Positions 6,611 through 31,666 of a DNA stretch of 64,000 bases are shown piece by piece. The first letter of the stretch is position 1. Every line of letters starts with the position of its first letter. The stretch lies in assembly GCA_028823885.1 (NCBI GenBank), contig JAPPFK010000152.1:293-64292 (forward strand). Reading direction: 5' to 3'. Both the position numbers and the translations under genes were made by a program. Origin of the DNA: Rhodospirillales bacterium. Its GTDB lineage: Bacteria; Pseudomonadota; Alphaproteobacteria; Rhodospirillales; UBA2165. Below the pieces are notes generated by a model that worked only from the letters and a program-made list of their open reading frames with translations, ran no database searches and was not told where the DNA came from.

Positions 6611-7294
6611 TTAAGCGGGAGGAATTACGAGATCCACGACCTCGGACAGCGAATCAATCCGGAAGTCCGCCATTTCCCGCTCGGATTCGTCTTTGGCATA
6701 CCCGTAGTTGACGCCGATTGACGGAACACCGGCGTCTCGGGCCGCGAGAAAATCGCTGCGGCTGTCACCGACAAATACACTCGAGTGAGCGGGCGTCTCC
6801 ATGAGTGACAGCGTCTCCAGGAGGTGGCGGCCGTCGGGTTTGGGGTAGGTGACATTGTCGCCGCCGGTAACGCCGCAAAACATATGGCTGAGCCCCAGCT
6901 CGCTGAGAACCACGAGGATCATCTCGTAGGGCTTGTTGGAACAGATGCCGAGCTTCAGTCCAGCCGACAAAAGCGCCCTCAGCGCCTCTTCGGCGGTTGG
7001 GTAAATCACCGTCTTCTCAACGGGCCGCGCCCGATACTGTTCGATGAACATGTCGACCGCGGCCTCCACTTGCCCGGCTGCCGCCTCCTCGCCCGTTGCG
7101 GTGAACGCACCCTCGATCATGTACCGAGCGCCATGCCCAACCAGCGCCCGAACCCCATCCAGCGCCAAAGCCGGCCGGTCAAACTCGGCCAGCATCCTAT
7201 TGAGCGCCGCGGCGACATCGGGAACACTGTCGACAAGGGTGCCGTCGAAATCAAAAACCACGGACGCGCGCGATCCAAGTGCCGGAATAGCCAT
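6611..7294 (-). CDS. gph: HAD-family phosphoglycolate phosphatase
   Basis: 227 aa with HAD motif I VVFDFDGTLVDS, then CSNKP and FVGDSRSDFLAARDAG. This is the intact copy of the repeated segment. Confidence 0.8.
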   Translation of the reverse strand: MAIPALGSRASVVFDFDGTLVDSVPDVAAALNRMLAEFDRPALALDGVRALVGHGARYMIEGAFTATGEEAAAGQVEAAVDMFIEQYRARPVEKTVIYPTAEEALRALLSAGLKLGICSNKPYEMILVVLSELGLSHMFCGVTGGDNVTYPKPDGRHLLETLSLMETPAHSSVFVGDSRSDFLAARDAGVPSIGVNYGYAKDESEREMADFRIDSLSEVVDLVIPPA

Positions 7295-7386
7295 TGCAAT
7301 CCTCAGCCTCCTGCTTATTCAGATGACAGATCGGTATCGAGCTTTCAAGCGGCGCAAGGCCGCCCAATCCGGAACCTCACTGATCG
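6724..7386. repeat. direct repeat, copy 1 (most of gph plus 92 bp upstream)
   Basis: 6963-7386 is identical base for base, by eye, to 31243-31666 (424 bp). 6724-6775 matches 31200-31251 with 4 mismatches. Copy 2 lacks 196 bp of copy 1, bounded by the 8-bp microhomology CCGACAAA at 6768-6775 and 6964-6971. Confidence 0.9.
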
Positions 7387-7490
7387 AGGTAACCGGAAGC
7401 CGAGACGTTCTGGAAGCAGCGATCCGATATTCAAGACCTGGGGCGCAAAGTGATTCTTGCGCCGGAATGGACTGAAGCAGGCGCCGCCTG

Positions 7491-9236
7491 ATGGTTGTCC
7501 ACGCCTTTTGCGTCAACGAGTTTTCCGTGTGGAGGATGCTGTGGTATCTGCTCCTCGGGCGGCGGGTCAGAATTCTAGCGGTTTTCGCAATCTACACGGC
7601 CTTCGATCGTCCGCTGCGGTGGCTGGTCGACCGCCTGACGGCGAAGGGCCGAATCGCACGGCTGGGCGATGACATCGAAGCGCTGGCGCCTCTGCAGGAC
7701 GATCCGGCCCGGGCGCTGCTCAGCGACTATTTCAACCGGATTGAACCGTGGCTCGAGAACTACTTCGGGTTCGGCGATCCGGATCCGGGCCACAGCGGCT
7801 ATCATCGCGCCTTTCAGCATCTGACGTGCAACTACATTGCGCTCCAGGCGGTCCAGATCGTTGCGCCGAGCATAGCGGCGGCGCGCTCTCCGGAAACGCA
7901 AGTCCGGTTTTACGGCTATCCAAGGGACATCGCGGCGGCGGCATGCGCGTTCGCGGGCCGGGACGCCCTGCCGCAAATTACCACGATGAGGCCGCCCGAT
8001 CGATTGCTCAACCTCCTGTTCAGTCTGGCGCTCGCCGCCTATTCCGCCGCCTGGCTGACGGTGCGCGTCCGGGCTTCACTGGCTCCGCCGGCCAGGATTT
8101 CGATGGCCTATGATTATCTTGATGATCCCACCCAGGCCGCCTTGTATCGGGAACTGGCCGGGTTGGGACCGTTTCTTCTGGTCCCGCGAAACAAGCCGCT
8201 GGCGCAAGAGGCGGAGCAACTCGACCTGCCGCCGCACAACCGGCGCACCATAACGGAGGGCCGATTCGGTTTTCTCGACGCGATCAAATGTTTCGGCGAA
8301 GCCGGACGGGACTGGCGGCAAATCCGGCGCCGTTACGGTTCCTGCTCCGCCCGCCATTTTCGTGAAGTAGCCGGTTTGGTTTACCGCCGCCTGGAGTATC
8401 GCGGCCTGTTTAATCTTTATGAGCCCAGGGTTTATTGGGGCCGGGACGGCTACTCGGCCGCGCACATTATCCGCCGCCAGGAACTCGCCCGGTTCGGCGG
8501 CGAGTCCTGGGGCGTATCTCATAGCTATTTTGCCCTTTCCGATTGCTATCCGGAATTTCGTTATTTGAACTTTGACCGCTACTACGTCATGGACCGGTCA
8601 ACAATTGAACGCTCATATGGCGAGAAATGGCCGGACTCCATGACGGTGGTCGGGGCTCAGCCGTTCAGGATGTCCCCGGCGCTAACCCGAGAAAGTCATT
8701 GTCCGAAACCGCCCGATATTCTTATCCTGTCGTCGGTTTCAATCTGGTCGCCGGCCTTTGTCCGGGCGGCGAGGGAAATCGCCGAGGCGTTCAGCGACCG
8801 GACCGTCAGGGTTCAGGTCAAACATAATCGCCAGCATCTGGACGCATGCCGGGAATTCCTCGACGCCGTCACCAAGGGTCTGGATCACACCGAAATTGTC
8901 ACCGAAAGGTCTCCCTACGCGCTATTTCCGCAATCCCGCTACACGGTCAGCGATCCGTCAACCGCGGCGGTAGAGTCGATCGTCAGCGGTTGCTACGGCT
9001 TCGTCTTGAACGTTGAGGAGGCCCAGTTGACCAACCCCTTGCGCCATCTGGACGGCGTTTGCGTAACGTCCGGGCCGGAAGCCGTTTCCCGGATCAAGGC
9101 GATCGAAAACGGGGAATGGGAGTATCCTTCCAAAGCCATTGCCGAGCATCTGGATATGTCCGGCACCGCTTTTCCGGACGTCATTCGCAGAGATTTCGGC
9201 CTGCCGCCCGCGGGTTTGGAGGCACGGCGATCATGA
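7491..9236 (+). CDS. hypothetical protein (581 aa), possible polysaccharide-biosynthesis enzyme
   Basis: Long ORF with an ATG start, first gene after the gph repeat. The C-terminal half has an alternating strand/helix Rossmann-like pattern (DILILSSVSIWSPAF, VRVQVKHN, SDPSTAAVESIVSGCYGFVL) reminiscent of GT-B or capsule-synthesis proteins. No diagnostic motif was recognised. Confidence 0.45.
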   Translation: MVVHAFCVNEFSVWRMLWYLLLGRRVRILAVFAIYTAFDRPLRWLVDRLTAKGRIARLGDDIEALAPLQDDPARALLSDYFNRIEPWLENYFGFGDPDPGHSGYHRAFQHLTCNYIALQAVQIVAPSIAAARSPETQVRFYGYPRDIAAAACAFAGRDALPQITTMRPPDRLLNLLFSLALAAYSAAWLTVRVRASLAPPARISMAYDYLDDPTQAALYRELAGLGPFLLVPRNKPLAQEAEQLDLPPHNRRTITEGRFGFLDAIKCFGEAGRDWRQIRRRYGSCSARHFREVAGLVYRRLEYRGLFNLYEPRVYWGRDGYSAAHIIRRQELARFGGESWGVSHSYFALSDCYPEFRYLNFDRYYVMDRSTIERSYGEKWPDSMTVVGAQPFRMSPALTRESHCPKPPDILILSSVSIWSPAFVRAAREIAEAFSDRTVRVQVKHNRQHLDACREFLDAVTKGLDHTEIVTERSPYALFPQSRYTVSDPSTAAVESIVSGCYGFVLNVEEAQLTNPLRHLDGVCVTSGPEAVSRIKAIENGEWEYPSKAIAEHLDMSGTAFPDVIRRDFGLPPAGLEARRS

Positions 9237-9395
9237 CGAGCTACGAGCACGAACGTGCAAGCGACCGTGTTGCCGAGGCGTGGCCCATTATCGCCAGCAT
9301 CCAACTCCTAACACGAAGGATCGCAAGGGCTTGATATTCATGAATTCATTGGCGAAAATACGTCTGTTCCGATACGCCGATTCGGGTCGGACTCT

Positions 9396-10127: not shown

Positions 10128-10233
10128 GTCACGAACGCTTGGACGGCATCAAAGCGCAGCCGAGCGCGATTTTTCGTTTGAGCAAATCGTTGCTTCCGAT
10201 AAATCGATTAGTTGACATTGCACACCGGAAATC

Positions 10234-11430: not shown

Positions 11431-12507
11431 ATGCCCGCGACCAAGGATGACGTCCAGCGGTTCTGGGGAGCGCTCCACGACTCCCTCCACGCGGGGGGCG
11501 GGGACGGGCCTGGCCGCGGGGACCTGCTCCGGAGCCTCGACGACCTGGAGGACATGTTCCGCCTCCGCCGCCACATGGCGGTCGTGGAGATGCCCCTGCA
11601 GGCGCTCGAGGGTCTGCGGGTTCTGGAGGTGGGCTCGGGCGCCGGCGGTCATTCGGCCCTGTTCGCCCGCCACGGGGCGCGGGTGACGGCGGTGGACCTG
11701 ACGGCGGCGCGGACGCGCGCGACCCGGGCCAAATTCGACGTCCTGGGCGAGTCCGCCGCGGGTTGCCTGGCGGTGCAGGCGGACGCGGAGCGGCTGCCTT
11801 TCGCGGAGGACAGCTTCGACATCGTCTATTCCAACGGCGTCCTTCACCACACGCCGGACACGGAGGCCGCCGTCGCCGAAGTCCGCCGCGTTCTCAAGCC
11901 CGGGGGGAAGGCCGTAATCATGCTCTACTGCAAGTCCTCCTGGCACTATTGGATCAACCTTTGGCTCTGCGTCGGCGTGCTCATGGGCAAGGCGTTCCGG
12001 GACCGCCACTGGCTGGGCAAGGCGACGGAGTGGGGCGGCGGCCACGCTCAGACGGTCGAGAACCCCGTCACCCGCTGCTACACCGCCGCCGGCATCCGCC
12101 GGTTGTTCGCGGGCTTCGCCGGGCTGAGCCTGCGCAAGAGCGAATTCTACTTCTACCTCATCCCGAAGCTCGGCCGGTTGTACCGGCGCTGGCAGGTGCG
12201 CCGCTACGGCACTCACCCGGGGGGCGTGCCGGTCTATGGGGAGCCGTGGCCGATCCAGTCGCCCCTGGAGTTCCTCCTCGGCCCGGTCATGGGCTGGGCC
12301 TGGTTCATCGCCGCCACGAAGCCGGCGCCGGGGCAAGGCGCCCTGGACGAACCGCCGCCGGCCGGGACCGCTTCGGACGGGTCATCCTTCATGCCTTCCC
12401 CGTCGCCGCCGCGACATGGAAGCAGCTCAAGCCAACAAAGGGGTTCCCCTTTCGACTCAAAACCGAGTCGTCCCGCACCAGGTCCGGTTCCCGTTCCATT
12501 GACATGA
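11431..12507 (+). CDS. class I SAM-dependent methyltransferase
   Basis: Motif I VLEVGSGAGGHSALFARHGARVTAVDL, motif II FDIVYSNGVLHH, and LKPGGKAVIM. The stop overlaps the next start (ATGA at 12504-12507). Confidence 0.75.
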   Translation: MPATKDDVQRFWGALHDSLHAGGGDGPGRGDLLRSLDDLEDMFRLRRHMAVVEMPLQALEGLRVLEVGSGAGGHSALFARHGARVTAVDLTAARTRATRAKFDVLGESAAGCLAVQADAERLPFAEDSFDIVYSNGVLHHTPDTEAAVAEVRRVLKPGGKAVIMLYCKSSWHYWINLWLCVGVLMGKAFRDRHWLGKATEWGGGHAQTVENPVTRCYTAAGIRRLFAGFAGLSLRKSEFYFYLIPKLGRLYRRWQVRRYGTHPGGVPVYGEPWPIQSPLEFLLGPVMGWAWFIAATKPAPGQGALDEPPPAGTASDGSSFMPSPSPPRHGSSSSQQRGSPFDSKPSRPAPGPVPVPLT

Positions 12508-14321
12508 TCGCCTCGGCAAGAAAACTCTACGATCTGATCGCACCGGCTTCGCGCGCCAGGATCCTGTTCCTGATAGTGCCGATGCTCATAACAGCCGTTC
12601 TCGAAATGGCGAGCATCGGAATGGTGCTTCCCGTGGTTCACATTTGGTTTGCGGGCGATACCGGTACCGGCCCCTTGGCAACGATCACCCGGTTCCTGCC
12701 GGACGCGTTGACGAAGAATTCCGGGGTCTGGCTGATCGTGCTCTTTGCAGCGCTCTTCGTCGTGAAGAACGTGATGGTTTTCGGCCTGACCCATCTCGTC
12801 AATCTGCTGGTTTACCTGGCGGCGGCGGATTTCATTTTCCGCCTGCATGGGGTCTATACCCGGCGCTCGCTGCTGTTCCATACCCGGAACAACAGCGCGG
12901 CGCTCCTCCGCAATCTCTTCGCCGGCGCCGGACAATCCTTTGAATGCATACGCATCTTCCTGCTGATGGTTCTCGATTTCCTATTGATGGCCGTGGTGAT
13001 AGCGCTGCTGCTGGCCGTGGAGCCCGTGGTGACGCTGCAACTGGCCGCCCTGATGCTGGTTGCCGGCCTGGTATTTTACAGGCTGGCCGCCCCGGCATTC
13101 CGACGGTGGGGCGAGAAGACAATGGAGCTCGAGGGCCACCTCATAAAATGGATCAACCAATCCTTCGACGGCATTCGCGACGTCAAAATCCTGAACGCCC
13201 ATGACCACGTCAATCGACACGTTGGAGACGTCGCCCGGGAGCGTGGAATTTTCCTGAGTTGGGCAACCTCGTCACTCCAGATACCCCGCCTGCTCATCGA
13301 AACGGTCGTGATAATCGGGTTCGTCCTGCTGGCAAGCTGGCTGGTGTCGGCGCGGGGCGCGACGGCCGAGGCGGTCAGCCTTCTGGGACTGTTCGGCATG
13401 GCCGCCTTGCGAATCATGCCGTCGGTCAATCGCATCTTGTCGAACGCGTCGAATCTGAAGAACCGCGCGGCCTACATCGATGCGGTCCACCACGATTACA
13501 CGATAGCCGAGGAAGCCGGCACGAACGAAGAACGGCAAATCGACCGGGCCGGGCTCGAGTTTAACCACGGGATCGTGCTCGACGGCGTGAACTTTCATTA
13601 TGACGAAACGGGAACGCCGGCCGTCGCGGACATTGATCTGACAATTCCCAAGGGGTTCAAGGTCGGCATTGTCGGTCCCTCCGGAGCCGGCAAGACAACG
13701 TTGGTCGATCTGTTTCTGGGGCTGCTCGCACCCCGGTCGGGCCGGCTATTGGTCGACGGAAAAGACATTCACGACAATCTTCGGGCATGGCAGGACCTGA
13801 TCGGCTACGTGCCCCAACAGCCGTTCTTGATTGATGACACCCTGCGCAGAAACATTGCCTTTGGCCTGGATGATGAGGATATCGACGAACACCGGTTGGA
13901 GATCGTCGTCGCTTCGGCCGACCTCGGCGGGGTCGTCGGGGATTTGGAGCATGGGCTCGATTCGGTGTTGGGCGAGAAAGGAGCGCGCATATCCGGCGGC
14001 CAACGGCAGAGAGTGGCGGTGGCGCGCGCTCTCTACCGCAACCCGGAGGTTCTGGTCTTCGACGAGCCGACATCCGCGCTCGACAATCAAAGCGAAGCCG
14101 AGTTCGTAAGCAACATCGAACGGCAAAGCGAGGCCGGAAAAACGATTTTGGTGGTCGCCCACCGGCTTAGCACCGTACGCCGTTGCGACTTGATCATATT
14201 CCTGAAGAACGGACGGATTGCCGGCCAAGGCAACCTGAACGAGCTTATGCAAAGCAACGACGAGTTCCGCGGCCTGGTGGAGATGGGCAATGTGGTGCAG
14301 CCGGTCGATCAGGATGGATGA
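12504..14321 (+). CDS. fused ABC transporter permease/ATPase (MsbA/PglK-like exporter or flippase)
   Basis: Internal ATG at 12504 (MIASARKLYDL) of the 852-aa ORF. Six-TM N-terminal domain, then Walker A GPSGAGKTT, signature ISGGQRQR and Walker B VLVFDEPTSALD. Confidence 0.85.
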   Translation: MIASARKLYDLIAPASRARILFLIVPMLITAVLEMASIGMVLPVVHIWFAGDTGTGPLATITRFLPDALTKNSGVWLIVLFAALFVVKNVMVFGLTHLVNLLVYLAAADFIFRLHGVYTRRSLLFHTRNNSAALLRNLFAGAGQSFECIRIFLLMVLDFLLMAVVIALLLAVEPVVTLQLAALMLVAGLVFYRLAAPAFRRWGEKTMELEGHLIKWINQSFDGIRDVKILNAHDHVNRHVGDVARERGIFLSWATSSLQIPRLLIETVVIIGFVLLASWLVSARGATAEAVSLLGLFGMAALRIMPSVNRILSNASNLKNRAAYIDAVHHDYTIAEEAGTNEERQIDRAGLEFNHGIVLDGVNFHYDETGTPAVADIDLTIPKGFKVGIVGPSGAGKTTLVDLFLGLLAPRSGRLLVDGKDIHDNLRAWQDLIGYVPQQPFLIDDTLRRNIAFGLDDEDIDEHRLEIVVASADLGGVVGDLEHGLDSVLGEKGARISGGQRQRVAVARALYRNPEVLVFDEPTSALDNQSEAEFVSNIERQSEAGKTILVVAHRLSTVRRCDLIIFLKNGRIAGQGNLNELMQSNDEFRGLVEMGNVVQPVDQDG

Positions 14322-14345
14322 ATTCCCGCGGGCCGACTTGACGAT

Positions 14346-16019
14346 GTGCCGGGAAATTTGGTGCCGGTCTCCCTAAGGCATTCGAGAAATGCGCGGCTGG
14401 CGGGCGGCCAAATGGTCTGGCTTGCGATCACCGGATCGTCGTGCCGGCTGCCGCCGGACCGGATGCTGCCCGAAGTCGGGCGACAACTCGAAGAGTCCTA
14501 CGAAGCGGTTTGTGGGCAGTGGATGTCGCTTGGCCGCAGGTTCTCCAAGGAACGCCGGGGTTGGTTGGCCGATATGCCCACGGCTGCCGTCGATATTTGT
14601 GATTTCGGCCTCATGCTGGCCTGGAGCGGCTTGGTCTCGGGACTCGCCCGGCAGGAGCGGGAAGTGCTCGTCGTATGCGACGACCCTTGGATGTTTCGGC
14701 ATCTGGGAACCTTGCCGGGCGTGACGGCGCATGGCGGCGTTGCATTATGGCGGCACCGGCTGAGGCTGCTCCTGCGCGGCTACGCTTCCCGTCTCAAAGT
14801 CTCACTGCGGGTAGCGCTGGCTGCGCTGCTCTACCGGTCGCAGCGGCGGCGGCATGTGATCAACCCCGGGGCCCCCGCGGTCGTCGCTTACGGTCACCCG
14901 TCCAGCCGGGGAGACGGATATGATGCATATTTCGGCGATCTCGTACTCCGTAATCCCCAAATCCTGCGAATACTGCACACGGACCTTATCGGCGATCGCA
15001 TACGGACCCTAACGACGGAGCGGCATTCGGCCAGTTTTCACGCCTGGGGAAATCCGCTCTTTGCGCTCACCCTGCCATTCGTTCGATGGAAGCCCCTGCT
15101 CGGTGAAGGCGACAAACCATATGCCTGGCTCGTCCGCCGGGCGGCCGAAACCGAGAATGGAGGCGGCGCTCTCGCCATGACCCGATGGCAAAATCACTGT
15201 CACGAGAATTGGCTCGAGAGCGTACGTCCGCGTTGCGTGGTTTGGCCCTGGGAGAATCACCCATGGGAACGGGATTTCGTTCGGCGATGCGATAACCTTG
15301 ATATCGAAACTCGAGGGTACCAGCACACGGTTGTCGGCCGGCACCGGCTCAACTTCAGCCCGAAAACGAATTTCGACGACGAGCGCAGTCTGCCGAACCG
15401 AATAATCTGCAACGGCCCGGCATATTTGGAACAACTGACCCAATTCGGTCTCGATCCCGCCCGGCTGATCGTCGGGGGCGCATTTCGATTTCCCTTGGTC
15501 GGCCATGACCATTACGACCCTGAAGGCCCGGTTTACGTGGCGCTGTCCCACGTCACCGGCATCGCGTCGCAAATGTTGGCCGCCATCGAATCCCTGCCGG
15601 CAAAATGCGCCAAATTCGTGGTCAAGAGCCATCCCATGTATCCCGTGGATTTTGACGAGAGTGAGAACATTAGCCGTACGCAGGCAACAATTCCGGAATT
15701 TCGAGGAATGCGGGCGGTACTGTACAGTACCGGGGCAACCGGACTTGAGGGGGCGATGATCGGGGTGCCGACCTGGCGGTTTCGTCCGGCTGACCGGATC
15801 GCTCCCGATATTCTGCCGAACAATGTGAGGTTGCCGTCGATAGCCAGGAGTGATATCGAATCCATCCTCGATCCACAGCCTGAATTCGCGCCGGTAGACT
15901 GGAATCAGGTCATGGCGCCGGTGGATATGGCGGTTTGGGCACGCGAGTTGGGCCTACCCGCTGTCCGGCAAGATGTCCGCGGGCCGGCTCACCTTGACGG
16001 TGCCGGCGGAGTTCCCTGA
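14346..16019 (+). CDS. hypothetical protein, possible GT-B-like/capsule-type enzyme
   Basis: 557-aa ORF (alternative ATG at 12 412 is not meant; the alternative ATG is at 14412). The C-terminal region (KFVVKSHPMYPVDFDE, AVLYSTGATGLEGAMIGVP) follows the same Rossmann-like pattern as the C-terminus of 7491-9236. No diagnostic motif. Confidence 0.4.
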   Translation: MPGNLVPVSLRHSRNARLAGGQMVWLAITGSSCRLPPDRMLPEVGRQLEESYEAVCGQWMSLGRRFSKERRGWLADMPTAAVDICDFGLMLAWSGLVSGLARQEREVLVVCDDPWMFRHLGTLPGVTAHGGVALWRHRLRLLLRGYASRLKVSLRVALAALLYRSQRRRHVINPGAPAVVAYGHPSSRGDGYDAYFGDLVLRNPQILRILHTDLIGDRIRTLTTERHSASFHAWGNPLFALTLPFVRWKPLLGEGDKPYAWLVRRAAETENGGGALAMTRWQNHCHENWLESVRPRCVVWPWENHPWERDFVRRCDNLDIETRGYQHTVVGRHRLNFSPKTNFDDERSLPNRIICNGPAYLEQLTQFGLDPARLIVGGAFRFPLVGHDHYDPEGPVYVALSHVTGIASQMLAAIESLPAKCAKFVVKSHPMYPVDFDESENISRTQATIPEFRGMRAVLYSTGATGLEGAMIGVPTWRFRPADRIAPDILPNNVRLPSIARSDIESILDPQPEFAPVDWNQVMAPVDMAVWARELGLPAVRQDVRGPAHLDGAGGVP

Positions 16020-16049
16020 TGATGCGGCGAATTGGTGGAATTACGGACG

Positions 16050-17255: not shown

Positions 17256-17308
17256 CCCGCGTCCCGGCAGCTGAATTGTGCATCCGTACGTAGGACAACC
17301 CCCCACCG

Positions 17309-22690: not shown

Positions 22691-22693
22691 CGA

Positions 22694-22792
22694 TCAGAAG
22701 AGAGACGGCAACAGGAAGGAACCGAAGCGGGCGAACTGGGTCTCAAAGTAACCCAAATTGACGAACAGATAGGAAGACAAGACGGCGATCAT
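22694..22792 (-). CDS. possible mini-ORF encoding a single TM helix, coupled to the GT-C gene
   Basis: My own translation: MIAVLSSYLFVNLGYFETQFARFGSFLLPSLF*. It is extendable to TTG starts at 22810, 22828 or 22861, giving LDSAKALAVLAWMIAVLSSYLFVNLGYF. Its TGA lies 3 nt before the ATG at 22690. Below the ORF-track cutoff and speculative. Confidence 0.25.
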   Translation of the reverse strand: MIAVLSSYLFVNLGYFETQFARFGSFLLPSLF

Positions 22793-22982
22793 CCAAGCCA
22801 GTACGGCCAAGGCTTTTGCGCTATCCAAATTCTCTGTCCTCCCGGAGACCGCGACGTACAAGCTGCCGCATGATAACCATGGCCACGTTCGAAGTTAAGA
22901 CCGCCGGCTCGGCCCAATGACCATTGTTCACCGTCACCTAGCACATCGCCGCGGTGATTCAAGACAACATTAGCCACTCAGG

Positions 22983-24647
22983 ATGTTGAACTCAGCAACC
23001 GGGACCATCGTCCGGCGGGCGCGTCAGATCGCGGCCGACCCGGTGCTGCGGCGATGGCTGGTCAGGCGGGCCTTGCGGCTTACGCCGGGCGCCCCCGGCT
23101 ACACGCCCCACCAACCGCCCTATCTGACGGATCGCCTCCCGATTCGCACGGGGCCTCCCGACCCCTCGCCGCCATTCCTGGAATTGCCTCCGGATGCCCC
23201 CACGTCGTCATTGAAGCTCAGTTTGGCCAGCCGGACCATCGAGGTGGAACCCGGTGACGAGACCCAACTCTTCGAACGCCGATTTCCCGATCTGGAAGAT
23301 CATTTGGCCTTGCACCGTTTCTCCTGGCTGCCCTTGGCGAAGAACATCGACCCTGCTTGGGTGAGCGCCATATTCGGCGTTTGGCGGGAGTTCATCCGAC
23401 GTTCGAGCGATCCTTGGATCTGGCATCCTTATACGGCGGCGGAGCGCGCCGTGAATTTGCTGGAATTCGGCCGGGCCCACGGCCTCCCCGCCCCCCTGGC
23501 GGACACCCTGGACCTGCTCGCGGATCATGCCGCGCGTATCGGCAACGCGCTCGAGTATTTTGGCCGGCACAACACATCCAACCACCTGGCCAACAACGGC
23601 CGCGGACTGTATCTGCTGGGCCTTGAACTCGGTCTCGCCGAGGCCCGGGAGATCGGCCGTATCATTCTCATGAAGGAAGCGGAGCGGGTGTTCATGCCGT
23701 CAGGGGTCCTGCGGGAGGGGTCCAGCCACTACCATCTGCTTCTAGCTCGCAACTATTTTCAGGTTGCCAACGCCGCCGCGGCCCGAAACCGCCCGGAGGC
23801 AGCCGGCCTCTCGGCGATTGCCGAAAGGTCGCTGCGAGCCGCCGCGGCACTCGTTCTTCCAGGCGGTTTGCCGTTGATCGGGGACATTTCACCCGATTGT
23901 CCGCCTTCGGACCTGATGGCGGCGCTCCCCGGCCAGCCGCCCGCACCGCCGGACATATTGGATCGGATGGCCGCCGACGGCTGGCTCCGATTTGCCGGCG
24001 GCTCGTGGACCGGCCTCTGGTACGTGCCGCCCGACGGATGGCCGCCCATGCCCGGGCATGGTCACAACGACTGTGGATCGTTCGAGCTGCATTTCGGCGA
24101 TCAACCCATATTCGTCGATCCGGGCCGGGGCCGGTATTGCGAAACGGCCGAAGCCGCCCATTATCGGTCCGGCGCCGCGCACAATGGCCTCGGCATCGAT
24201 GGCCTCGACGCCTACCCCGCCAACAGGCCCTATTATTCGGAGGAATTTCGCCGGATCGTTTGCGGAGGTCCGCCGGACCTGACCCATACGGCCGACAGCG
24301 TGAGCCTGCGGTTCGAAGGATTTAAGCGGCGGCGCGGTCTAGGCGCCGTGGAGCGGCATTGGCGGTTTGCCGGAGCCGATGTCGTGATCGCCGATACCGT
24401 CGAGGGTTCAGGCAGACACAAGATCACCCGCCGAATCGCCACGCCATTATCGGCGGAACTCTTCGACAACGAGGTCAAGCTCTCATCTTCGGCGGAAAAT
24501 TGGTCCGTCAGTATGCCGGGCGACGTGTCTCTTCAATCCATCACAAGATGGCGCGCCTATGGGCGCGGGACGCCGATGTCTCAAATCGTCATTGAGGAGA
24601 CGGCGGCGCTTCCGTGGCGGGGCGAGATACGGGTCCGGGCCATATGA
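22983..24647 (+). CDS. heparinase II/III-family protein (copy 2)
   Basis: 554 aa with PGHGHNDCGSFELHFGDQPIFVDPGRGRY and AAHNGLGIDG, typical of the heparinase II/III-like C-terminal domain. Its stop overlaps the next start (ATGA). Confidence 0.7.
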   Translation: MLNSATGTIVRRARQIAADPVLRRWLVRRALRLTPGAPGYTPHQPPYLTDRLPIRTGPPDPSPPFLELPPDAPTSSLKLSLASRTIEVEPGDETQLFERRFPDLEDHLALHRFSWLPLAKNIDPAWVSAIFGVWREFIRRSSDPWIWHPYTAAERAVNLLEFGRAHGLPAPLADTLDLLADHAARIGNALEYFGRHNTSNHLANNGRGLYLLGLELGLAEAREIGRIILMKEAERVFMPSGVLREGSSHYHLLLARNYFQVANAAAARNRPEAAGLSAIAERSLRAAAALVLPGGLPLIGDISPDCPPSDLMAALPGQPPAPPDILDRMAADGWLRFAGGSWTGLWYVPPDGWPPMPGHGHNDCGSFELHFGDQPIFVDPGRGRYCETAEAAHYRSGAAHNGLGIDGLDAYPANRPYYSEEFRRIVCGGPPDLTHTADSVSLRFEGFKRRRGLGAVERHWRFAGADVVIADTVEGSGRHKITRRIATPLSAELFDNEVKLSSSAENWSVSMPGDVSLQSITRWRAYGRGTPMSQIVIEETAALPWRGEIRVRAI

Positions 24648-25603
24648 GCCCGGCACCCTCCCGGTCCGATAAGGCTCGCTTCGCGGACGTGAGCGTCGTG
24701 ATCCCGGCCTACCGTGCCGCCGACACCGTCGGGCGGGCGATACGCAGCGTCGCCGCCGGCACGGTTCAGCCCAAGGAAATAATTGTCGTAAACGATGGGG
24801 ATGACCCGGACACCGCCGCCGCCGCGGAGGAAGCCTCGAGAGCCCTGACAAACATCGAAGTAGCGGTCGTCGGCCAACCCCAGGCCGGCGCGGGCGCCGC
24901 CCGCAACCGCGGCCTTTCCGGCGCCACGGGTGAATTCGTCGCCTTCCTGGACGCCGACGACGAGTGGATGCCCGGCAAACTGGAACGCAGCATGGGGTGG
25001 GTGGCTCAGGGCGGTCTGGATTTGGTGGCCCACGATTACATCCGGGTGGACCGGGACAACGAGCAGGTCGTCTCCTGTGCCAGGCATTTTCGGGGCGGCG
25101 AAGACCCTTACGTTTCGCTCTACAAGCGCGGTTATATCGCGACGAGCACGGTTGTCGCGCGGCGGCAATCATTGATGCGGGCCGGCGGGTTCGACACGAC
25201 TCTCCAAAATGCCCAGGATTTCGAGCTGTGGCTTCGGCTGCTGGCGGAAAACGATGTCACCTACGCCGTCTTCGACGAACCCCTGCTCCGCTACCATGTC
25301 TCGCCATCGGGCATCACCAGCCATACGGACCGGCGCCTGGCCTGCTGCCTCATCGTGGCCCGGCGTCATTACCCCAAAGTTGCGCTCCATAGTGCTGTTC
25401 CCCTCCTGACGCTGTGGTACCGGATAGCCGCGGTCCACAAGGAAGCGATGGACTCGCACCGGCGGAAGTCGAACTGGATGAGGCTTCTGCGGACAGCGGT
25501 CGGATTTCCAATCGCCCTGGCAGCGCTGACACTCGCCACCCGGGCGCGGTCGGCCCGCAATCGAAGATCGTGGCGCGCGCCGACAAAAACGAGAACAAGA
25601 TGA
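24644..25603 (+). CDS. family-2 glycosyltransferase
   Basis: VSVVIPAYRAADTVGRAIRSVAAGTVQPKEIIVVNDGDDPDT, then FLDADDEW (DxD). ATG 24644 chosen for the ATGA coupling. Confidence 0.85.
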   Translation: MSPAPSRSDKARFADVSVVIPAYRAADTVGRAIRSVAAGTVQPKEIIVVNDGDDPDTAAAAEEASRALTNIEVAVVGQPQAGAGAARNRGLSGATGEFVAFLDADDEWMPGKLERSMGWVAQGGLDLVAHDYIRVDRDNEQVVSCARHFRGGEDPYVSLYKRGYIATSTVVARRQSLMRAGGFDTTLQNAQDFELWLRLLAENDVTYAVFDEPLLRYHVSPSGITSHTDRRLACCLIVARRHYPKVALHSAVPLLTLWYRIAAVHKEAMDSHRRKSNWMRLLRTAVGFPIALAALTLATRARSARNRRSWRAPTKTRTR

Positions 25604-25607
25604 GGCC

Positions 25608-25970
25608 GTGCCGGCGTCGGCCAGGTATCCGGCCGCATCCTTTTGGGCCGCCGATCGACGGGTTTCCGTTTCACCGGATACCATCGAGCGATATCTCACC
25701 GCCCCCGGCCGTCCTCGATTCGATGCGGTGGTTATGGTCAATGTTCTCGAGCACATTCAAGACGATGCCGCCTGTCTCACCCAACTGCACGGGGCATTTC
25801 ATCCCAGCGGGAGGCTATTACTTTTCGTCCCGGCCATGGAGTTTCTTTTCAGCAAACTTGACCGGGAATTCGGCCGGACCTACAAGGATGGAGAGAAAAT
25901 TCGTGCACACCACCTATTCGGAATCATCGGCGCCATGTTTTCGACATTAGTGCGGAGTCGGCGCTCATGA
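25608..25970 (+). pseudogene. C-terminal fragment of a class I SAM methyltransferase
   Basis: 120 codons containing only the distal motifs (FDAVVMVNVLEHIQDDAACLTQLHGAFHPSGRLLLFVP). No glycine-rich SAM motif I lies upstream in any obvious frame. Confidence 0.45.
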
Positions 25971-27076
25971 TTCCGCTTGTCGACCTCGCCCAGCAGCATG
26001 CGGCCCTCAAAGAGGAAATCGATGCCGCCATTGACGAAACCGTCACCAAATCCGCGTTCATCCGCGGCGAGGCGCTGGAACGGTTCGAGTCGGCCTTTGC
26101 CGAGGTGATTGGAGTTTCCCACGCGCTCGGCGCGGGTTCCGGGACCGACGCTCTCAATTTAGCGGTCCGAGCCCTTGATCTTGGTCCGGAGGACGAAGTC
26201 ATTACCGTCGACAATACGTGGATATCAACGGCGTTTGCCGCCACGTTGGCCGGCGCCCGGCTTGTCCTTGTCGATATAGACCCCGCGACCTATCAGATGG
26301 ACCTGAACTCGTTGGAGCGCGCGATAACGCCACGCACCAAGGCTGTCATTCCGGTCCACCTTTTTGGTCATCCCGCCCCGATGCCGGAGATTGTCCGGCT
26401 TTGCCGTTCGCGCGGAATTCACATCATAGAAGATGTGGCTCAAGCGCCGCTTGCGGAAATTGACGGGCAGCAGGCGGGCACGTTCGGCGATGTCGCCTGC
26501 TACAGCTTCTATCCATCGAAAAATCTCGGCGCCATGGGCGATGGCGGCGCCGTCGTAACCAACAACGACACGCTGGCGCGGAAGATTCGCCGGTTGGCGG
26601 ATTACGGCCAGGATACCCGCTATCACCACGCCGACATCGGCTTCAATTCCCGCCTAGATACCGTTCAGGCCGCCATACTCAACGTCAAGCTGAAGCACCT
26701 CCGGGATTGGACCGGCAAACGGCGGCGGAACGCCGAAATTTACAATGATCTGCTTTCGGACCTGCCCGTAAAACGACCGTCAGAGGACGCTCGGGCCAGC
26801 GCCGTCTACCATCTTTATGTCATCGAAGTCGACGACCGGGACAGGTGTCTCGAATATCTCCGGTCACAAGGCGTGATGGCCCAAGTCCACTACTCGTCAC
26901 TCATTCACGCTCAGCCCTGTTACGAAGATCTCGGCTATACGGACGACGATTTTCCGGCGGCCAGCCGGGCCGTCAAGCGGATACTGTCTCTCCCCATGTA
27001 CGCAGAACTGCGGGCTCAGCAGATGGAATCCGTTGTAGCAACACTGGCACGGTTCATTTCTTCAAATCGACCGTGA
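25967..27076 (+). CDS. DegT/DnrJ/EryC1/StrS-family PLP-dependent sugar aminotransferase
   Basis: 369 aa: IPLVDLAQQHAALKEEIDAAI, GAGSGTDALNLA, SFYPSKNLGAMGDGGAVVTN (PLP lysine region). Confidence 0.9.
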   Translation: MIPLVDLAQQHAALKEEIDAAIDETVTKSAFIRGEALERFESAFAEVIGVSHALGAGSGTDALNLAVRALDLGPEDEVITVDNTWISTAFAATLAGARLVLVDIDPATYQMDLNSLERAITPRTKAVIPVHLFGHPAPMPEIVRLCRSRGIHIIEDVAQAPLAEIDGQQAGTFGDVACYSFYPSKNLGAMGDGGAVVTNNDTLARKIRRLADYGQDTRYHHADIGFNSRLDTVQAAILNVKLKHLRDWTGKRRRNAEIYNDLLSDLPVKRPSEDARASAVYHLYVIEVDDRDRCLEYLRSQGVMAQVHYSSLIHAQPCYEDLGYTDDDFPAASRAVKRILSLPMYAELRAQQMESVVATLARFISSNRP

Positions 27077-27093
27077 TTCCTGATCAATCTTGA

Positions 27094-27840
27094 GCTTCTT
27101 GGGAGACGCCAATCTATAAGGGCCGGCGAATAATTCTCATCGCACCGGCATTTGACGAAGCCGGAAAGATCGAGAAGGTCGCGGAAGCGGTTCCCTACGA
27201 CATCGTCGATACATTTCTCGTCGTCGATGACGGTTCCACGGACGATACCGCGGCATTGGCCCGAGCGGCCGGAGCGCGCGTGATTTCCCACGACAGGCCG
27301 CTCGGCGTGGGAACGGCAATCAAACGCGGCTACCGCGTGGCGCTTGAAGAGAACTTTGATATCGCGGTGGTTATCGCAGGAAACAACAAAGACGACCCGC
27401 GTGAGGTTACACGGCTGCTCGACCCGATCTGTTCCGGAGATTCCGAGTTTGTCATGGGTTCGAGGTATCTGCCCGGGGGGTCATTCGGCGGTGACATGCC
27501 GGCGTATCGCGTGTTTGCAACCAGGTACATCCATCCGCTTATCGTCCGGCTCCTCACCGGCGCGAAGGTCACCGAGACATCCAACGGATACCGGGCAATT
27601 GCCACCAAGGCCCTCCGGGATCCTCGCATACGGTTGGAACAATCATGGTTAAAGGACTATCAGCTGGAAATGTACCTCATCATGAAGGTGCTGATGCTCG
27701 ACGGAATCCGGACCACGGAGGTTCCGATCTCAAAAATCTATCCACCAAAAGAAATCGGCTATACAAAAATGACTCCTGTTATTGGGTGGTGGAAAATGCT
27801 TTATCCCCTATTCCTGATTGGTCTTGGGATTCGAAGGTAG
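27094..27840 (+). CDS. family-2 glycosyltransferase, polyprenyl-phosphate sugar synthase type (DPM1/ArnC/GtrB-like), with start-codon problem
   Basis: The ORF track starts it at TTG 27256. The same frame upstream, however, encodes the GT2 N-terminus RIILIAPAFDEAGKIEKVAEAVPYDIVDTFLVVDDGSTDDTAAL. Codons 27094-27255 contain no ATG, GTG, TTG or CTG. A GTG at 27073 (GTGA overlap with the degT-like stop) is followed by an in-frame TGA at 27091. There is a C-terminal TM helix (VIGWWKMLYPLFLIGLGI). Confidence 0.65.
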   Translation, partial: ASWETPIYKGRRIILIAPAFDEAGKIEKVAEAVPYDIVDTFLVVDDGSTDDTAALARAAGARVISHDRPLGVGTAIKRGYRVALEENFDIAVVIAGNNKDDPREVTRLLDPICSGDSEFVMGSRYLPGGSFGGDMPAYRVFATRYIHPLIVRLLTGAKVTETSNGYRAIATKALRDPRIRLEQSWLKDYQLEMYLIMKVLMLDGIRTTEVPISKIYPPKEIGYTKMTPVIGWWKMLYPLFLIGLGIRR

Positions 27841-28365
27841 GTGGCGGTGGCGGAAGCAAACTTCAGAGATATTGGCATTGTCGATGTGGAATTCGGCGAT
27901 CGGGTCAATGTGGTCCGGCCGGTGAATCTCTATGGCTGCCGAATTGGAGACGACAGCTTCATTGGGCCATTCGTCGAAATCCAACGCAACGCGACGATCG
28001 GGAAGCGGACGCGGGTGCAATCGCACTGTTTCATCTGCGAACTGGTCACCATAGGTGACGACTGTTTCATTGGTCACGGCGTAATGTTCATCAACGACTG
28101 GTTCGATACAGGCAAGCCGGCGTTCAATCAGCCGGAGCTATGGGCGGAAACGATCATCGGCAATACGGTCAGCATTGGCTCAAACGCAACGATCCTGCCG
28201 GTTCATATCTGCGATCATGTCGTGGTTGGCGCCGGTTCGGTGGTAACCCGCGATATCACCGAGCCGGGAATCTATCACGGCAGCCCCGCAAAATTGGTCC
28301 GAACGCTCGACCCGGAAACCGAGACCGCCAACCTGAACTTTTCCCGCCGTCTCAGGCAACAGTAG
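27841..28365 (+). CDS. left-handed beta-helix (hexapeptide-repeat) sugar N/O-acyltransferase
   Basis: 174 aa of imperfect hexapeptide repeats (IGDDSFIGPFVEIQ, IGDDCFIGHGVMF, IGNTVSIGSNATI, VVVGAGSVV). Confidence 0.8.
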   Translation: MAVAEANFRDIGIVDVEFGDRVNVVRPVNLYGCRIGDDSFIGPFVEIQRNATIGKRTRVQSHCFICELVTIGDDCFIGHGVMFINDWFDTGKPAFNQPELWAETIIGNTVSIGSNATILPVHICDHVVVGAGSVVTRDITEPGIYHGSPAKLVRTLDPETETANLNFSRRLRQQ

Positions 28366-28418
28366 GTCCCAATAGGCTTTTGCCGCGGCGCCCGGCCTGG
28401 GGCGCGAGGAGATTGTAT

Positions 28419-28862
28419 ATGACCCGGACCGATCATCCCGACATCGAACCCCTGACCGAAGAGGAGGTGCGGAAATGGCCCAAGGAGGTCATCGTCGCCC
28501 TCACCGAGAAGTTCGAGGATGACCGCGGGGAAATCGTGCCGCTCGTCGACTTGGCGATGAAAAGCGCGGTCTGGATCACCTCCAAGAAAGGCAGCGTCCG
28601 CGCCAACCATTATCATAAGTCCGACTGGCACTTCTGTTATGTGGTCAGCGGCTCCATCGAGTATTACCACCGCCCGCACGGCAGCGGCCAGGAGCCGGAA
28701 ATGGTCCTGGTGAACAAGGGCGAGCTGTTCTTCACGCCGCCGATGGTCGATCACGCCATGGTATTTCCCGAGGATACGGTATTTCTCACCCTCGGACGCA
28801 ACTCACGCAGACAGGAGGTCTATGAGGCGGACGTGGAGCGTATCGACCCGATCAACCCGTGA
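28419..28862 (+). CDS. cupin-fold sugar isomerase/epimerase-like protein (FdtA/WxcM/RmlC-like)
   Basis: Internal ATG 28419 with AGGAG 8 nt upstream. 147 aa with DDRGEIVPL, ANHYHKSDWHFCYVVSGSIEY and the cupin His pattern. Confidence 0.6.
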   Translation: MTRTDHPDIEPLTEEEVRKWPKEVIVALTEKFEDDRGEIVPLVDLAMKSAVWITSKKGSVRANHYHKSDWHFCYVVSGSIEYYHRPHGSGQEPEMVLVNKGELFFTPPMVDHAMVFPEDTVFLTLGRNSRRQEVYEADVERIDPINP

Positions 28863-30121
28863 TCCAGCCGGTTTCCGTGACTTCGAAACACCATAGACGC
28901 GAGACCTGCCGGCTTTGCGGCAGCCGGAATCTGGAACAGGTTCTCTCGCTTGCCCCGACCCCGCCCGCAAACGCGTTCGTTTCCCGCGATGAACTGGGCG
29001 CCGAGCAGCCCTGCTACCCGCTCGACCTGCATTTTTGCAATGCGTGCACGCACGTGCAGCTGCTGGATGTCGTCGATCCCGGGGAACTGTTTTCGAACTA
29101 CGTCTATGTTTCGGGCACGTCGCCGGTATTCGTGGAGCATTTCGAAGAATATGCGATGAACGTCACCAAACGATTTGGCTCCGTCGACGGCCGCCTGGTG
29201 GTGGAAATAGGCTCAAATGACGGAACCCTGCTCGGGTTTTTTCGCGGCCACGGGGCGGAGATACTGGGCATCGACCCGGCGAGGCGGATTGCCGCGCAAG
29301 CCAACGCAAACGGCGTCAAGACACTCGCCGAATTCTTCACCCCCGGCCTGGCCCGGACAATCCGCCGGGAACATGGCGCGGCAAAAGTCGTCGCGGCCAA
29401 CAATGTCCTCGCCCACGCGGACGATCTCGCAGCCATCATCGACGGCGTCGCAACGCTGCTGGCCGATGACGGTGTGCTGGTATTCGAAGTGTCGTACCTG
29501 GCCGATGTCTATCGGCACCTACTGTTCGACACCATCTACCACGAGCATCTGGACTATCATTCCGTCAAACCGCTGGTGCCGTTCCTTGATGCCCGCGGTC
29601 TGTGCCTGACCCGTGTCGAGCGGGTGGCGTCCCATGGCGGCAGCATCCGTTGCTATGCGCAGCCCAAGGCCGCGGGACCCGCCATCCATGCTTCGGTCCG
29701 CCGGTGCATAACGGCCGAGGAAGATCTTGGTTTGGACCGGGCCGGGACCTTCCGGCAATTTGGAGAGCGGATCACCGGCCTCGGATCGCGGCTCCGGTCC
29801 GAGCTCAAATCCATAAGCGCGGCGGGCAAAACCATCGCCGCCTACGGCGCCCCGGCCAAGGCGACGACGTTGATGTATCACTTTCAACTGAGCGCGGCCC
29901 AAATCGAATTCATCGTTGACGACAGCGAATGGAAGCAAGGTTTGTATTCACCCGGATTGCATATTCCGGTCGTGGCAAGCAGTGAGATTTACCGGCAACG
30001 TCCGGACTACCTTCTTGTCCTGGCCTGGAACTTCGCCGATCCGATCATATCCAAGCATCAGGCCTTCCGCGATGCGGGGGGGACCTTTATCGTGCCGCTG
30101 CCGGAAATGAGGCTTATTTGA
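28859..30121 (+). CDS. NDP-sugar C-methyltransferase (TylCIII/NovU-like)
   Basis: 420 aa. N-terminal Zn-ribbon CRLCGS then CNACTHVQL, a class I MT core VVEIGSNDGTLL, and the C-methyltransferase C-terminal domain. GTGA overlap with the upstream gene. Confidence 0.75.
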   Translation: MIQPVSVTSKHHRRETCRLCGSRNLEQVLSLAPTPPANAFVSRDELGAEQPCYPLDLHFCNACTHVQLLDVVDPGELFSNYVYVSGTSPVFVEHFEEYAMNVTKRFGSVDGRLVVEIGSNDGTLLGFFRGHGAEILGIDPARRIAAQANANGVKTLAEFFTPGLARTIRREHGAAKVVAANNVLAHADDLAAIIDGVATLLADDGVLVFEVSYLADVYRHLLFDTIYHEHLDYHSVKPLVPFLDARGLCLTRVERVASHGGSIRCYAQPKAAGPAIHASVRRCITAEEDLGLDRAGTFRQFGERITGLGSRLRSELKSISAAGKTIAAYGAPAKATTLMYHFQLSAAQIEFIVDDSEWKQGLYSPGLHIPVVASSEIYRQRPDYLLVLAWNFADPIISKHQAFRDAGGTFIVPLPEMRLI

Positions 30122-30123
30122 TC

Positions 30124-31185
30124 ATGTCCAGTCATCTTCCAAAATCCGATATACGGGAAATCGTCGACCGGCTTGGTCCCGTCGCCGGGAGCTTTTCCGG
30201 CAAGACGGTATTGCTGACCGGGGGACGGGGTTTTCTCGGCCGCTATTTCTCGGAAGTCTTCAACCGGCTGAACCAGTCGGTTCTCGAGAAGCCGGCAAAT
30301 CTCGTCATCCTGGACAACCTCATTACCGCAGGCGAGGCCGGCCAATCCATGAAAGGCGGCGAGCACGTTCAATTGATCCGGCATGACGTCATCGAGCCTT
30401 TCGAGTTCGACGGCCCAATCGACTACGTGATTCACGCCGCCGGAATCGCCAGCCCGTTCTATTACCGCGCCTATCCCCTGGAAACGCTTGAAGTCGCGAT
30501 CGCCGGCACCCGCAACATGCTGCAACTCGCCGAAGACAACGGAGCGAGATTTACCTTTTTCTCGTCAAGCGAGATCTATGGCGACCCCGATCCCAAACAT
30601 GTTCCCATGGCGGAGAGCTACCGCGGCAACGTCTCCTGCCAGGGGCCTCGAGCGTGCTACGACGAGAGCAAGCGGGTCGGCGAGACCTTGTGTTACATAT
30701 TTCACAACATGCATGGCACCGAAACCAACACCATCCGCCCGTTCAACGTTTTTGGGCCGGGCATGCAGGAGACGGATTACCGGGTGTTGCCCAATTTCGC
30801 CAGCCGGATCAAAGGCGGACTGCCGTTGAACGTTTACGGATCGGGCAATCAGACCCGGACCTTCTGCTATATCACCGACGCCATGGTCGGCTTCCTGCTG
30901 GTGGTCCTCAAGGGCGTGCCCGGCGAGGCCTACAACATCGGAAATCCGGAACCGGAAGTTTCGATGATTGATCTGGTTGAGCGTCTGAAGGGCATTGTCG
31001 GCGAGAGCATAGAGTACAATCTGATCGAGTACCCCGACAGCTACCCCGCCGATGAACCCATGCGCCGCAGCCCGGACATCCGGAAGGCGCGGCTCCAGCT
31101 CGGCTTCAATCCCGAGGTCAGCCTCGACGAGGGGTTGAAGCGTTTTTTCGCATGGACCGATGGGGCCTACACCGGCGGACAATAG
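30124..31185 (+). CDS. extended-SDR NAD-dependent epimerase/dehydratase (UDP-glucuronate decarboxylase-like)
   Basis: VLLTGGRGFLGRYF (GxxGxxG) and catalytic YDESKRVGE (YxxxK). ATG 30124 preferred over TTG 30118. Confidence 0.8.
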   Translation: MSSHLPKSDIREIVDRLGPVAGSFSGKTVLLTGGRGFLGRYFSEVFNRLNQSVLEKPANLVILDNLITAGEAGQSMKGGEHVQLIRHDVIEPFEFDGPIDYVIHAAGIASPFYYRAYPLETLEVAIAGTRNMLQLAEDNGARFTFFSSSEIYGDPDPKHVPMAESYRGNVSCQGPRACYDESKRVGETLCYIFHNMHGTETNTIRPFNVFGPGMQETDYRVLPNFASRIKGGLPLNVYGSGNQTRTFCYITDAMVGFLLVVLKGVPGEAYNIGNPEPEVSMIDLVERLKGIVGESIEYNLIEYPDSYPADEPMRRSPDIRKARLQLGFNPEVSLDEGLKRFFAWTDGAYTGGQ

Positions 31186-31193
31186 TGCGAGAT

Positions 31194-31574
31194 TTATACG
31201 AACGCCGGCGTCTCGGGCCGCGAGAAAATCGCTGCGACTATCGCCGACAAAAGCGCCCTCAGCGCCTCTTCGGCGGTTGGGTAAATCACCGTCTTCTCAA
31301 CGGGCCGCGCCCGATACTGTTCGATGAACATGTCGACCGCGGCCTCCACTTGCCCGGCTGCCGCCTCCTCGCCCGTTGCGGTGAACGCACCCTCGATCAT
31401 GTACCGAGCGCCATGCCCAACCAGCGCCCGAACCCCATCCAGCGCCAAAGCCGGCCGGTCAAACTCGGCCAGCATCCTATTGAGCGCCGCGGCGACATCG
31501 GGAACACTGTCGACAAGGGTGCCGTCGAAATCAAAAACCACGGACGCGCGCGATCCAAGTGCCGGAATAGCCAT
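31194..31574 (-). pseudogene. frameshifted, 3'-truncated duplicate of gph
   Basis: The first 110 aa are identical to gph (6611-7294). The 196-bp deletion then shifts the frame (tail IVAAIFSRPETPAFV), and the last ~38 codons of gph are absent. Confidence 0.85.
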
Positions 31575-31666
31575 TGCAATCCTCAGCCTCCTGCTTATTC
31601 AGATGACAGATCGGTATCGAGCTTTCAAGCGGCGCAAGGCCGCCCAATCCGGAACCTCACTGATCG
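31200..31666. repeat. direct repeat, copy 2 (gph 5' part plus upstream region, 196-bp internal deletion)
   Basis: See copy 1. 31243-31666 is identical to 6963-7386, and 31200-31251 is about 92% identical to 6724-6775. Confidence 0.9.

Follow-up and report, generated by a model that had tools for sequence, protein, structure and literature searches.

Two gph cassettes in a mosaic glycan locus of an uncultured Rhodospirillales bacterium: probable decay of the resident copy and likely homogenization of the remainder

Bacterial O-antigen and capsule loci are mosaics that are exchanged by recombination and retain gene remnants, as in the galF-gnd region of Escherichia coli and Salmonella, the K loci of Klebsiella, and the change from Vibrio cholerae O1 to O139. 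Duplicated bacterial genes, including tufA/tufB in Salmonella and the rRNA operons, evolve in concert via RecA-dependent gene conversion. In Haemophilus influenzae type b (Hib) the capsule locus cap is duplicated, with one truncated copy of bexA, and recombination between the repeats gives capsule-deficient variants. Long polysaccharide operons are controlled by RfaH and the ops (JUMPstart) element. In this study, a stretch of 64,000 nucleotides from a Rhodospirillales bacterium (assembly GCA_028823885.1, contig JAPPFK010000152.1 of 64,293 bp, positions 293 to 64,292 of the forward strand) was analyzed; this whole stretch is referred to as the window. A phosphatase gene, gph, is found in it twice, at the two ends of a glycan block.

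The locus is an ordinary mosaic, hypervariable, RfaH-linked O-antigen-type locus of an uncultured Rhodospirillales bacterium. Judging from the alignments, the gph copy beside rfaH (copy 1) is a working gene, and the copy beside the wecA-like gene (copy 2) is most probably the resident copy at the usual site, which is decaying via two deletions. The gph and RfaH proteins, together with the sequences that make up their 90% clusters, served as queries in the search for relatives. Eleven related loci with approximately 90–95% DNA identity were recovered (L numbers below), several of them on large contigs whose names suggest long-read assembly. A scan of GTDB representatives gave just one close genome, and a JGI metagenome scan with gph gave no close relative (best match 50% identical). 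The features of the two gph copies, in window coordinates, are as follows.

6585–7386, minus strand: gph cassette of about 800 bp (gene, terminator hairpin and 92-bp upstream region), delimited by alignments with L088, L003, L083, L170, L172, L171 and L173
6611–7294, minus strand: intact gph-like HAD phosphatase of 227 amino acids (aa), MDE0539622.1 (Pfam HAD_2, 1.5e-33; TIGR01449)
6724–6775, unstranded: 52-bp segment of copy 1 that is retained in copy 2 too; it encodes the HAD motif GDSRSD
6963–7386, unstranded: repeat copy 1, comprising the 5' 332 bp of gph and 92 bp upstream
31194–31574, minus strand: truncated, frameshifted gph open reading frame (ORF) of 126 aa, MDE0539644.1, with motif I (DFDGT) only
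31200–31251, unstranded: 52-bp island of copy 2, between two deletion junctions
31200–31208, unstranded: deletion A junction, with one GAACGCCGG left and 174 bp missing relative to the related loci
31243–31251, unstranded: deletion B junction, with one GCCGACAAA left; two copies stand 196 bp apart in copy 1 (as an 8-mer) and in L003 (as a 9-mer)
31243–31666, unstranded: repeat copy 2

The preliminary description of this DNA, made by eye, had reported an identity of 424 bp between the two copies and a further 52-bp stretch with four mismatches. Both were confirmed: exact alignment of 6963–7386 with 31243–31666 gave 0 mismatches in 424 bp (100% identity), both flanks losing identity abruptly in the pairwise comparison, and 48 of 52 bases agree between 6724–6775 and 31200–31251. 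The contrast of 0/424 with 4/52 mismatches is a sharp step from diverged to identical sequence between the paralogues. If the 7.7% divergence of the 52-bp stretch were uniform, the probability of finding no mismatch in 424 bp would be about 2e-15, and it would still be about 2e-4 at 2% divergence.

Copy 2 as a whole extends over 31200–31666. It lacks the 196 bp that lie between CCGACAAA at 6768–6775 and CCGACAAA at 6964–6971 of copy 1, and since 196 is not divisible by 3, its frame is shifted. The last approximately 38 codons, the part matching 6611–6723, are missing as well. Deletion A takes out these codons together with the epimerase-gph spacer and the gph terminator hairpin. The 9-mer GAACGCCGG was found 3' of the epimerase stop codon in L003 and L170, and again within gph in L003; the inner site in L170 reads GAACACCGG rather than GAACGCCGG. 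Both pairs of 9-mers (GAACGCCGG and GCCGACAAA) that flank deletions A and B are retained in L003. Thus, for the 174-bp and the 196-bp loss alike, the undeleted reference has two copies of a short repeat, of which the junction keeps one. The 196-bp gap between octamers, the frameshift, the loss of terminal codons and the disabling of copy 2 by microhomology deletion had all been noted in the preliminary description and were borne out, except that there are two deletions and not one. Bacterial pseudogenes have been described to show microhomology at the sites of deletions (PMC6054270). As in those pseudogenes, both deletions in copy 2 keep one of the 9-bp repeats that are doubled in undeleted orthologues, although at 174 and 196 bp they exceed the small indels analyzed there.

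The block between the copies, its end genes, and the contexts in which the cassette was found are listed below.

7387–31199, plus strand: variable glycan block of 23.8 kb, a mosaic resembling L088 on the left and L003, L083, L170 and L172 on the right
7491–9236, plus strand: 581-aa protein without a family, next to gph in contexts A and C, with homologues in L088, L087, L171 and L173
30118–31185, plus strand: NAD-dependent epimerase/dehydratase, the last block gene, abutting copy 2; its orthologues adjoin intact gph in L003, L083, L170 and L172
31701–32705, plus strand: WecA/MraY-family initiating transferase, divergent from copy 2 (Pfam Glycos_transf_4, 9e-34)
Type A (one locus, L088): rfaH, gph and the 581-aa gene, as at copy 1, with a junction filler of about 20 bp in common with the window
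Type B (four loci, L003, L083, L170 and L172): epimerase, intact gph on the opposite strand, and wecA
Type C (two loci, L171 and L173): cassette inverted, with translational coupling to the 581-aa homologue

Seven of the related loci bear gph, with one cassette each, in these three contexts. In the type B loci the rightmost 3–10 kb of the block, the intact gph and wecA are contiguous, and these loci are colinear with 20774/25800–31211 and 31243–40000 of the window at 93–96% identity. Because an intact gph is present at the same place, between epimerase and wecA, in all four, copy 2 is the usual-site copy and its junction the usual arrangement rather than an insertion scar. By this comparison, the unusual feature of the window is the second cassette at the rfaH end, an arrangement in common with L088. 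Other strains have different sequence there. L169, the rfaH side of the 737-kb contig of L003, carries other genes straight after rfaH and neither gph nor a remnant of it, and L086 and L087 carry different blocks immediately after rfaH. Two gph copies were not seen in the recovered sequence of any relative, several of the contigs spanning only one end of the locus.

The preliminary description had proposed that recombination at gph led to the gain or rearrangement of the block 7387–31199. A gain as one unit does not agree with the copy-2 junction, which is conserved in four relatives, or with the lack of an empty site among the relatives, and the comparison indicates that the 24-kb block was not inserted into gph. 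The order rfaH-gph-wecA was absent among the seven gph-bearing loci, among the gph loci recovered for the nine members of the two clusters of gph at 90%, and in the five rfaH contexts, so that a gph-wecA locus without the 24-kb block, for which the preliminary description had suggested looking, was not seen. The opposite situation raised there, a two-copy structure in all relatives, was not encountered either, a single copy being present in each relative examined. Its observation that both repeat ends abut divergent cluster genes holds: repeat copy 1 ends 104 bp before the 581-aa gene starts (7491), and repeat copy 2 ends 34 bp before the wecA-like start (31701).

The cassette is the homologous unit common to the alternative genomic contexts. 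Its edge at 7386 is constant in all of them, so that the right end of the window repeat is simply the end of cassette homology. A constant edge could suggest site-specific recombination. This was not supported: there is no integrase or invertase nearby, and the flipped arrangement appears old, since it is translationally coupled to its neighbor and approximately 89% identical. No IS element or integrase adjoins the cassette in the window, and no inverted repeats of at least 30 nt were found in a window-level scan; the cassette ends were not searched for shorter ones. As in the mosaic O-antigen and capsule loci of other bacteria, a conserved backbone (rfaH/waaL side, wecA/WbpM side) surrounds a variable block of lower GC content (approximately 59% over about 5–33 kb vs. 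approximately 67% in the backbone), close strains differ in the block, and stubs remain (GT2, ugd and gph). Unlike in those loci, the cassette is found at either end of the block or flipped across strains, and at both ends here.

The origin of the identical tract was examined using window-unique sites judged against seven relatives. Eight window-unique substitutions were found in the 424 bp, and all of them (8/8) are present in both copies. In the 52-bp stretch, all four differences (4/4) fall at sites that are polymorphic among the relatives; the allele of copy 1 is identical to that of L170 and L172, and that of copy 2 is one mismatch from L003. Shared derived substitutions next to differences at polymorphic sites point to two distinct alleles that were homogenized recently over the remaining shared tract. 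It had been suggested in the preliminary description that a recent event or gene conversion was layered on an older duplication, and the present data are in keeping with this in the form of a homogenizing event on two older alleles.

The following account is considered likely. A gph cassette of about 800 bp takes alternative positions in close strains, and the genome of the window has two of these placements together. Copy 2, by wecA, would then have become redundant and decayed through the 174-bp and 196-bp deletions between 9-bp direct repeats, probably by replication slippage or microhomology-mediated end joining. The two copies would have begun as different alleles, of which 424 bp were recently homogenized by intragenomic gene conversion, the conversion tract reaching the cassette edge, where homology ends. 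The second cassette may have arrived by inter-strain recombination that joined a type A left end to a type B right end, or by an older duplication. The window matches L088 over 5058–9213 and 12472–17387 and the type B strains over 20774–31211, and this resemblance to L088 on the left and to type B on the right fits an inter-strain hybrid. Conversion as the mechanism, and its direction, are matters of inference. The broken copy would be the resident and the intact copy the newcomer or the relocated one. In common with tufA/tufB, the window repeats show a sharp identical tract with shared derived substitutions beside diverged sequence. They differ in that one partner is a pseudogene, so that selection for two working copies is not evident, and in that the tract is bounded by the cassette edge on one side and by a deletion junction on the other.

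Several observations weigh against this account. The direction of conversion and the left boundary of the tract cannot be read, the boundary lying inside the 196 bp that are missing from copy 2, and the density of unique sites, alike in the copy-1-only and the shared segments, singles out no donor. Over its whole length, copy 1 is closer to the type B alleles (93.4–94.4%) than to the sole other type A copy (90.6%). Only one type A relative (L088) is available and its contig ends before the wecA side; the two-copy state could be commoner than it appears. Bubble popping during short-read metagenome assembly could also have made the identity look more perfect than it is. Copy 1 is B-like at 32 of the 36 sites that separate L088 from the type B copies, a count that was not used to decide origin or conversion direction, since L088 is the most distant of all the strains and this confounds the comparison. 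The B-likeness of copy 1 may stem from strain phylogeny, from earlier conversions or from intragenomic duplication.

Intragenomic duplication is the main alternative for the first step, the origin of the second copy. It would require no hybrid: the wecA-side cassette would have been duplicated ectopically to the rfaH side within the lineage, the copies would have been kept alike by concerted conversion, and the original would now be being lost. The shared derived substitutions, the cassette edge at 7386, which is the same in A and B contexts, and the grouping of copy 1 with type B alleles over its full length, including the 32/36 B-like sites, all suit such a duplication. It is nevertheless judged unlikely. 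The type A left junction and its filler of about 20 bp are common to the window and L088, which is the most distant strain (approximately 90%), and are not found in the closer L003/L169, L087 and L086, so that several losses or a transfer would be required; in addition, the 52-bp stretch differs at sites that are polymorphic in the population. An error of assembly, either a chimera of strains or a consensus in which two diverged copies collapsed to give the 424-bp identity, was also considered. The source is a metagenome assembly, apparently of short reads as judged from the scaffold naming; strains with different locus types co-occur per sample (e.g., four different contigs in ERZ25069412); 424 bp is probably more than the read length, so that the path through the repeat rests on graph resolution; and the Logan assembly breaks at the repeat. 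Logan contig L002 (run SRR10996927) starts at 31637, 30 bp (k-1) within the repeat end, as expected for a de Bruijn graph branch at a true repeat boundary. The junction sequences of copy 2 (deletion A, the 52-bp allele and deletion B) are unique and lead into the repeat, and must therefore exist in the reads; the assembled order is the sole linear path in which each segment is used once. The orders rfaH-gph-hyp581 and epimerase-gph-wecA were each seen separately in contigs of relatives, including the 737-kb contig. NCBI and ENA records both hold the full-length and the truncated protein, over the 17.3 kb available for comparison an ENA scaffold from this sample agrees at 100% identity, and the window contains no N. 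An artefact is regarded as improbable.

The least probable of the explanations considered, by a small step, is that one Campbell-type crossover in gph brought the 24-kb block as one unit into a recipient with the order rfaH-gph-wecA, the reverse reaction giving on/off variation. Direct repeats of a gene fragment around an insert are the classic footprint of such a crossover, the repeats here are direct with a truncation in one of them, and the locus is clearly prone to module exchange. The recipient order was nevertheless found neither among the loci of the nine gph-cluster sequences nor in the five rfaH contexts. The right part of the block, gph and wecA are contiguous in four relatives at backbone-level identity, from which it follows that the copy-2 junction is not new. 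A Campbell-type gain also predicts even divergence along both repeats and not 0/424 beside 4/52, and the truncation of copy 2 is accounted for by in-situ deletions between 9-mers that are found in relatives. For scans of genomes, a comparison with relatives should come before direct repeats around a glycan block are called the scar of an insertion or excision. The preferred account, of a second cassette, redundancy and conversion, makes the locus a compact example of module shuffling, gene conversion and microhomology deletion in one surface-glycan locus of an uncultured Rhodospirillales bacterium. It opens no long-standing question. The recent copy correction that best accounts for the 424-bp match would be an ordinary by-product of the reshuffling that such loci undergo.

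A perfect direct repeat of 424 bp is an adequate substrate for RecA, and loss of the block via recombination between the repeats would be mechanistically plausible. After such a loss, wecA would have an intact gph as its neighbor, and the exporter and most of the transferases would be gone; the change would be irreversible and not an on/off switch. No contig matching the deletion product or the circle junction was found in the collections searched. The resemblance to Hib cap lies in the direct repeats around polysaccharide genes, in a truncated gene copy at the repeat edge, and in RecA-mediated glycan loss, which is a prediction here. The Hib repeats, by contrast, are whole 18-kb loci bounded by IS1016 and the capsule loss has been seen experimentally, whereas the repeats of the window have 424 bp, recombination would leave the remaining gene undamaged, and no loss product came to light. 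It could be imagined by analogy that the 424-bp repeats are kept identical as a built-in RecA substrate, so that the 24-kb exporter/modification block is shed at appreciable frequency, but we give this only a slim chance. If it were true, glycan-less or minimal-glycan variants would be expected in the population, comparable to the loss of Hib cap, and the gph cassette, with one boundary, three contexts and two orientations, would be a recurrently mobilized module that seeds repeats.

The gph gene of copy 1 encodes both catalytic HAD motifs (DxDGT and GDxxxD) as DFDGT and GDSRSD. Its dN/dS against orthologues is 0.14–0.21; copy 1 is under purifying selection. The TIGR01449 model (PGP_bact, HAD subfamily IA) was a marginal pass (186.6 bits vs. 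a cut-off of 180), and other PGP models scored far under their cut-offs. The close homologues of gph and those that are 52% identical all lie within glycan clusters, where the neighboring genes encode the 581-aa unknown protein, WecA, an HpcH aldolase, a KdsB-like cytidylyltransferase, a GFO oxidoreductase and a 2-hydroxyacid dehydrogenase. This setting suggests a sugar-phosphate phosphatase, and a role in the ulosonic-acid branch is a reasonable prediction. The label "phosphoglycolate phosphatase" should be read with caution, as the enzyme is probably a sugar-phosphate phosphatase of a glycan pathway. Neither Pfam nor NCBIfam gave a match for the 581-aa protein (7491–9236). Its gene is the direct neighbor of gph in types A and C and is translationally coupled to it in L171 and L173, and the protein may work together with the phosphatase.

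Three features precede the gph cassette at the left end of the locus.

5835–6341, plus strand: RfaH-like NusG paralogue, MDE0539621.1 (Pfam NusG; named RfaH by NCBI)
6361–6397, plus strand: conserved hairpin (6361–6385), then the ops-like TGCGGTAGCGTG (6386–6397), directly after the RfaH-like gene
6418–6540, plus strand: GT2 gene stub with the N-terminal approximately 41 codons (MDATVSQDPDVSVIVPVHNQ...); homology to the full-length GT2 of L086 stops at about 6540

The RfaH-like protein scored 114 bits with TIGR01955 (RfaH), under the cut-off of 144.5, this being the best-scoring model of NusG paralogues; its homologues carry the RfaH name at NCBI and JGI. The TGCGGTAGCGTG element matches the E. 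coli ops consensus GGCGGTAGnnTG at 11 of 12 positions, and eight such matches are present in the window vs. 4.2 expected by chance. L086, L087, L088 and L169 all have its core GCGGTAGC without change; a single G/A difference lies immediately 3' of the core. No match to Rfam JUMPstart was obtained, either in the whole window at gathering thresholds or in 6300–7600 at E<=1, and scans of both repeat regions for sigma-70 promoters and terminators gave nothing usable. As in RfaH/ops systems, an RfaH-like gene, a conserved hairpin and an 11/12 ops-like motif head a long, mostly co-directional glycan block. The sub-threshold RfaH score, the lack of a JUMPstart match, and a transcript that would run from the ops-like element (6386–6397) antisense through the gph cassette(s) set the window apart from them.

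On the left, the edge of the locus consists of rsmB, a heparinase-like gene, a WaaL-type ligase, a MarR-like regulator and the RfaH-like NusG paralogue; on the right, of the WecA/MraY-family transferase (31701), a GT4 transferase, an epimerase and a WbpM-like dehydratase. The block carries genes for the 581-aa unknown protein, a GT8 enzyme, a sulfotransferase, a methyltransferase, a PglK/MsbA-like ABC exporter, a radical SAM enzyme, an HpcH aldolase, a KdsB-like cytidylyltransferase, a GFO oxidoreductase, a GT-C-like membrane protein (minus strand), a heparinase-like protein, a GT2 enzyme and an aminosugar module, and the epimerase is last. At 11431–14321, a mechanical ORF of 852 aa (11763–14321) overlaps the 358-aa methyltransferase ORF (11431–12507); the gene calls of the ENA copy in this region are the 358-aa methyltransferase and a 605-aa PglK/MsbA-like ABC exporter.

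Other remnants were observed besides that of gph. The GT2 stub (6418–6540) is also present in L087, L088 and L169, marking an older replacement breakpoint. A remnant of ugd (UDP-glucose dehydrogenase), called as a 99-aa fragment, is located at about 3208–3442 with about 1.1 kb missing; L086 and L087 carry a full ugd of 444 aa between the heparinase-like gene and waaL. The GT2 stub and the ugd remnant fit the same picture of decay and replacement as the gph remnant. Mosaicism was also seen inside the block: at 25540–25875 of the window, L003, L083 and L172 hold an extra 1–2.2 kb (methyltransferase and hypothetical genes), and L172 is without 26030–28386.

Two further observations concern sequence to the right of the glycan locus. 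An island of 3.4 kb at 40663–44070, with a GC content of 47–50%, is missing from L170. It encodes a MazG plus MazG_C protein (40767–42119), a protein with an HMUDK_hel 5-hmdU DNA kinase domain (5e-105; 42183–43268), and a 258-aa protein without a family (43274–44050, minus strand), and from these domains it looks like a strain-specific thymidine-hypermodification or DNA-modification module. A family of repeats of about 100 bp, approximately 86% identical, is present at 54654–54756, 62841–62940 and 63916–64000, with a further match at one place between genes in L003. The ENA scaffold from this sample terminates within the repeat at 54654–54756.

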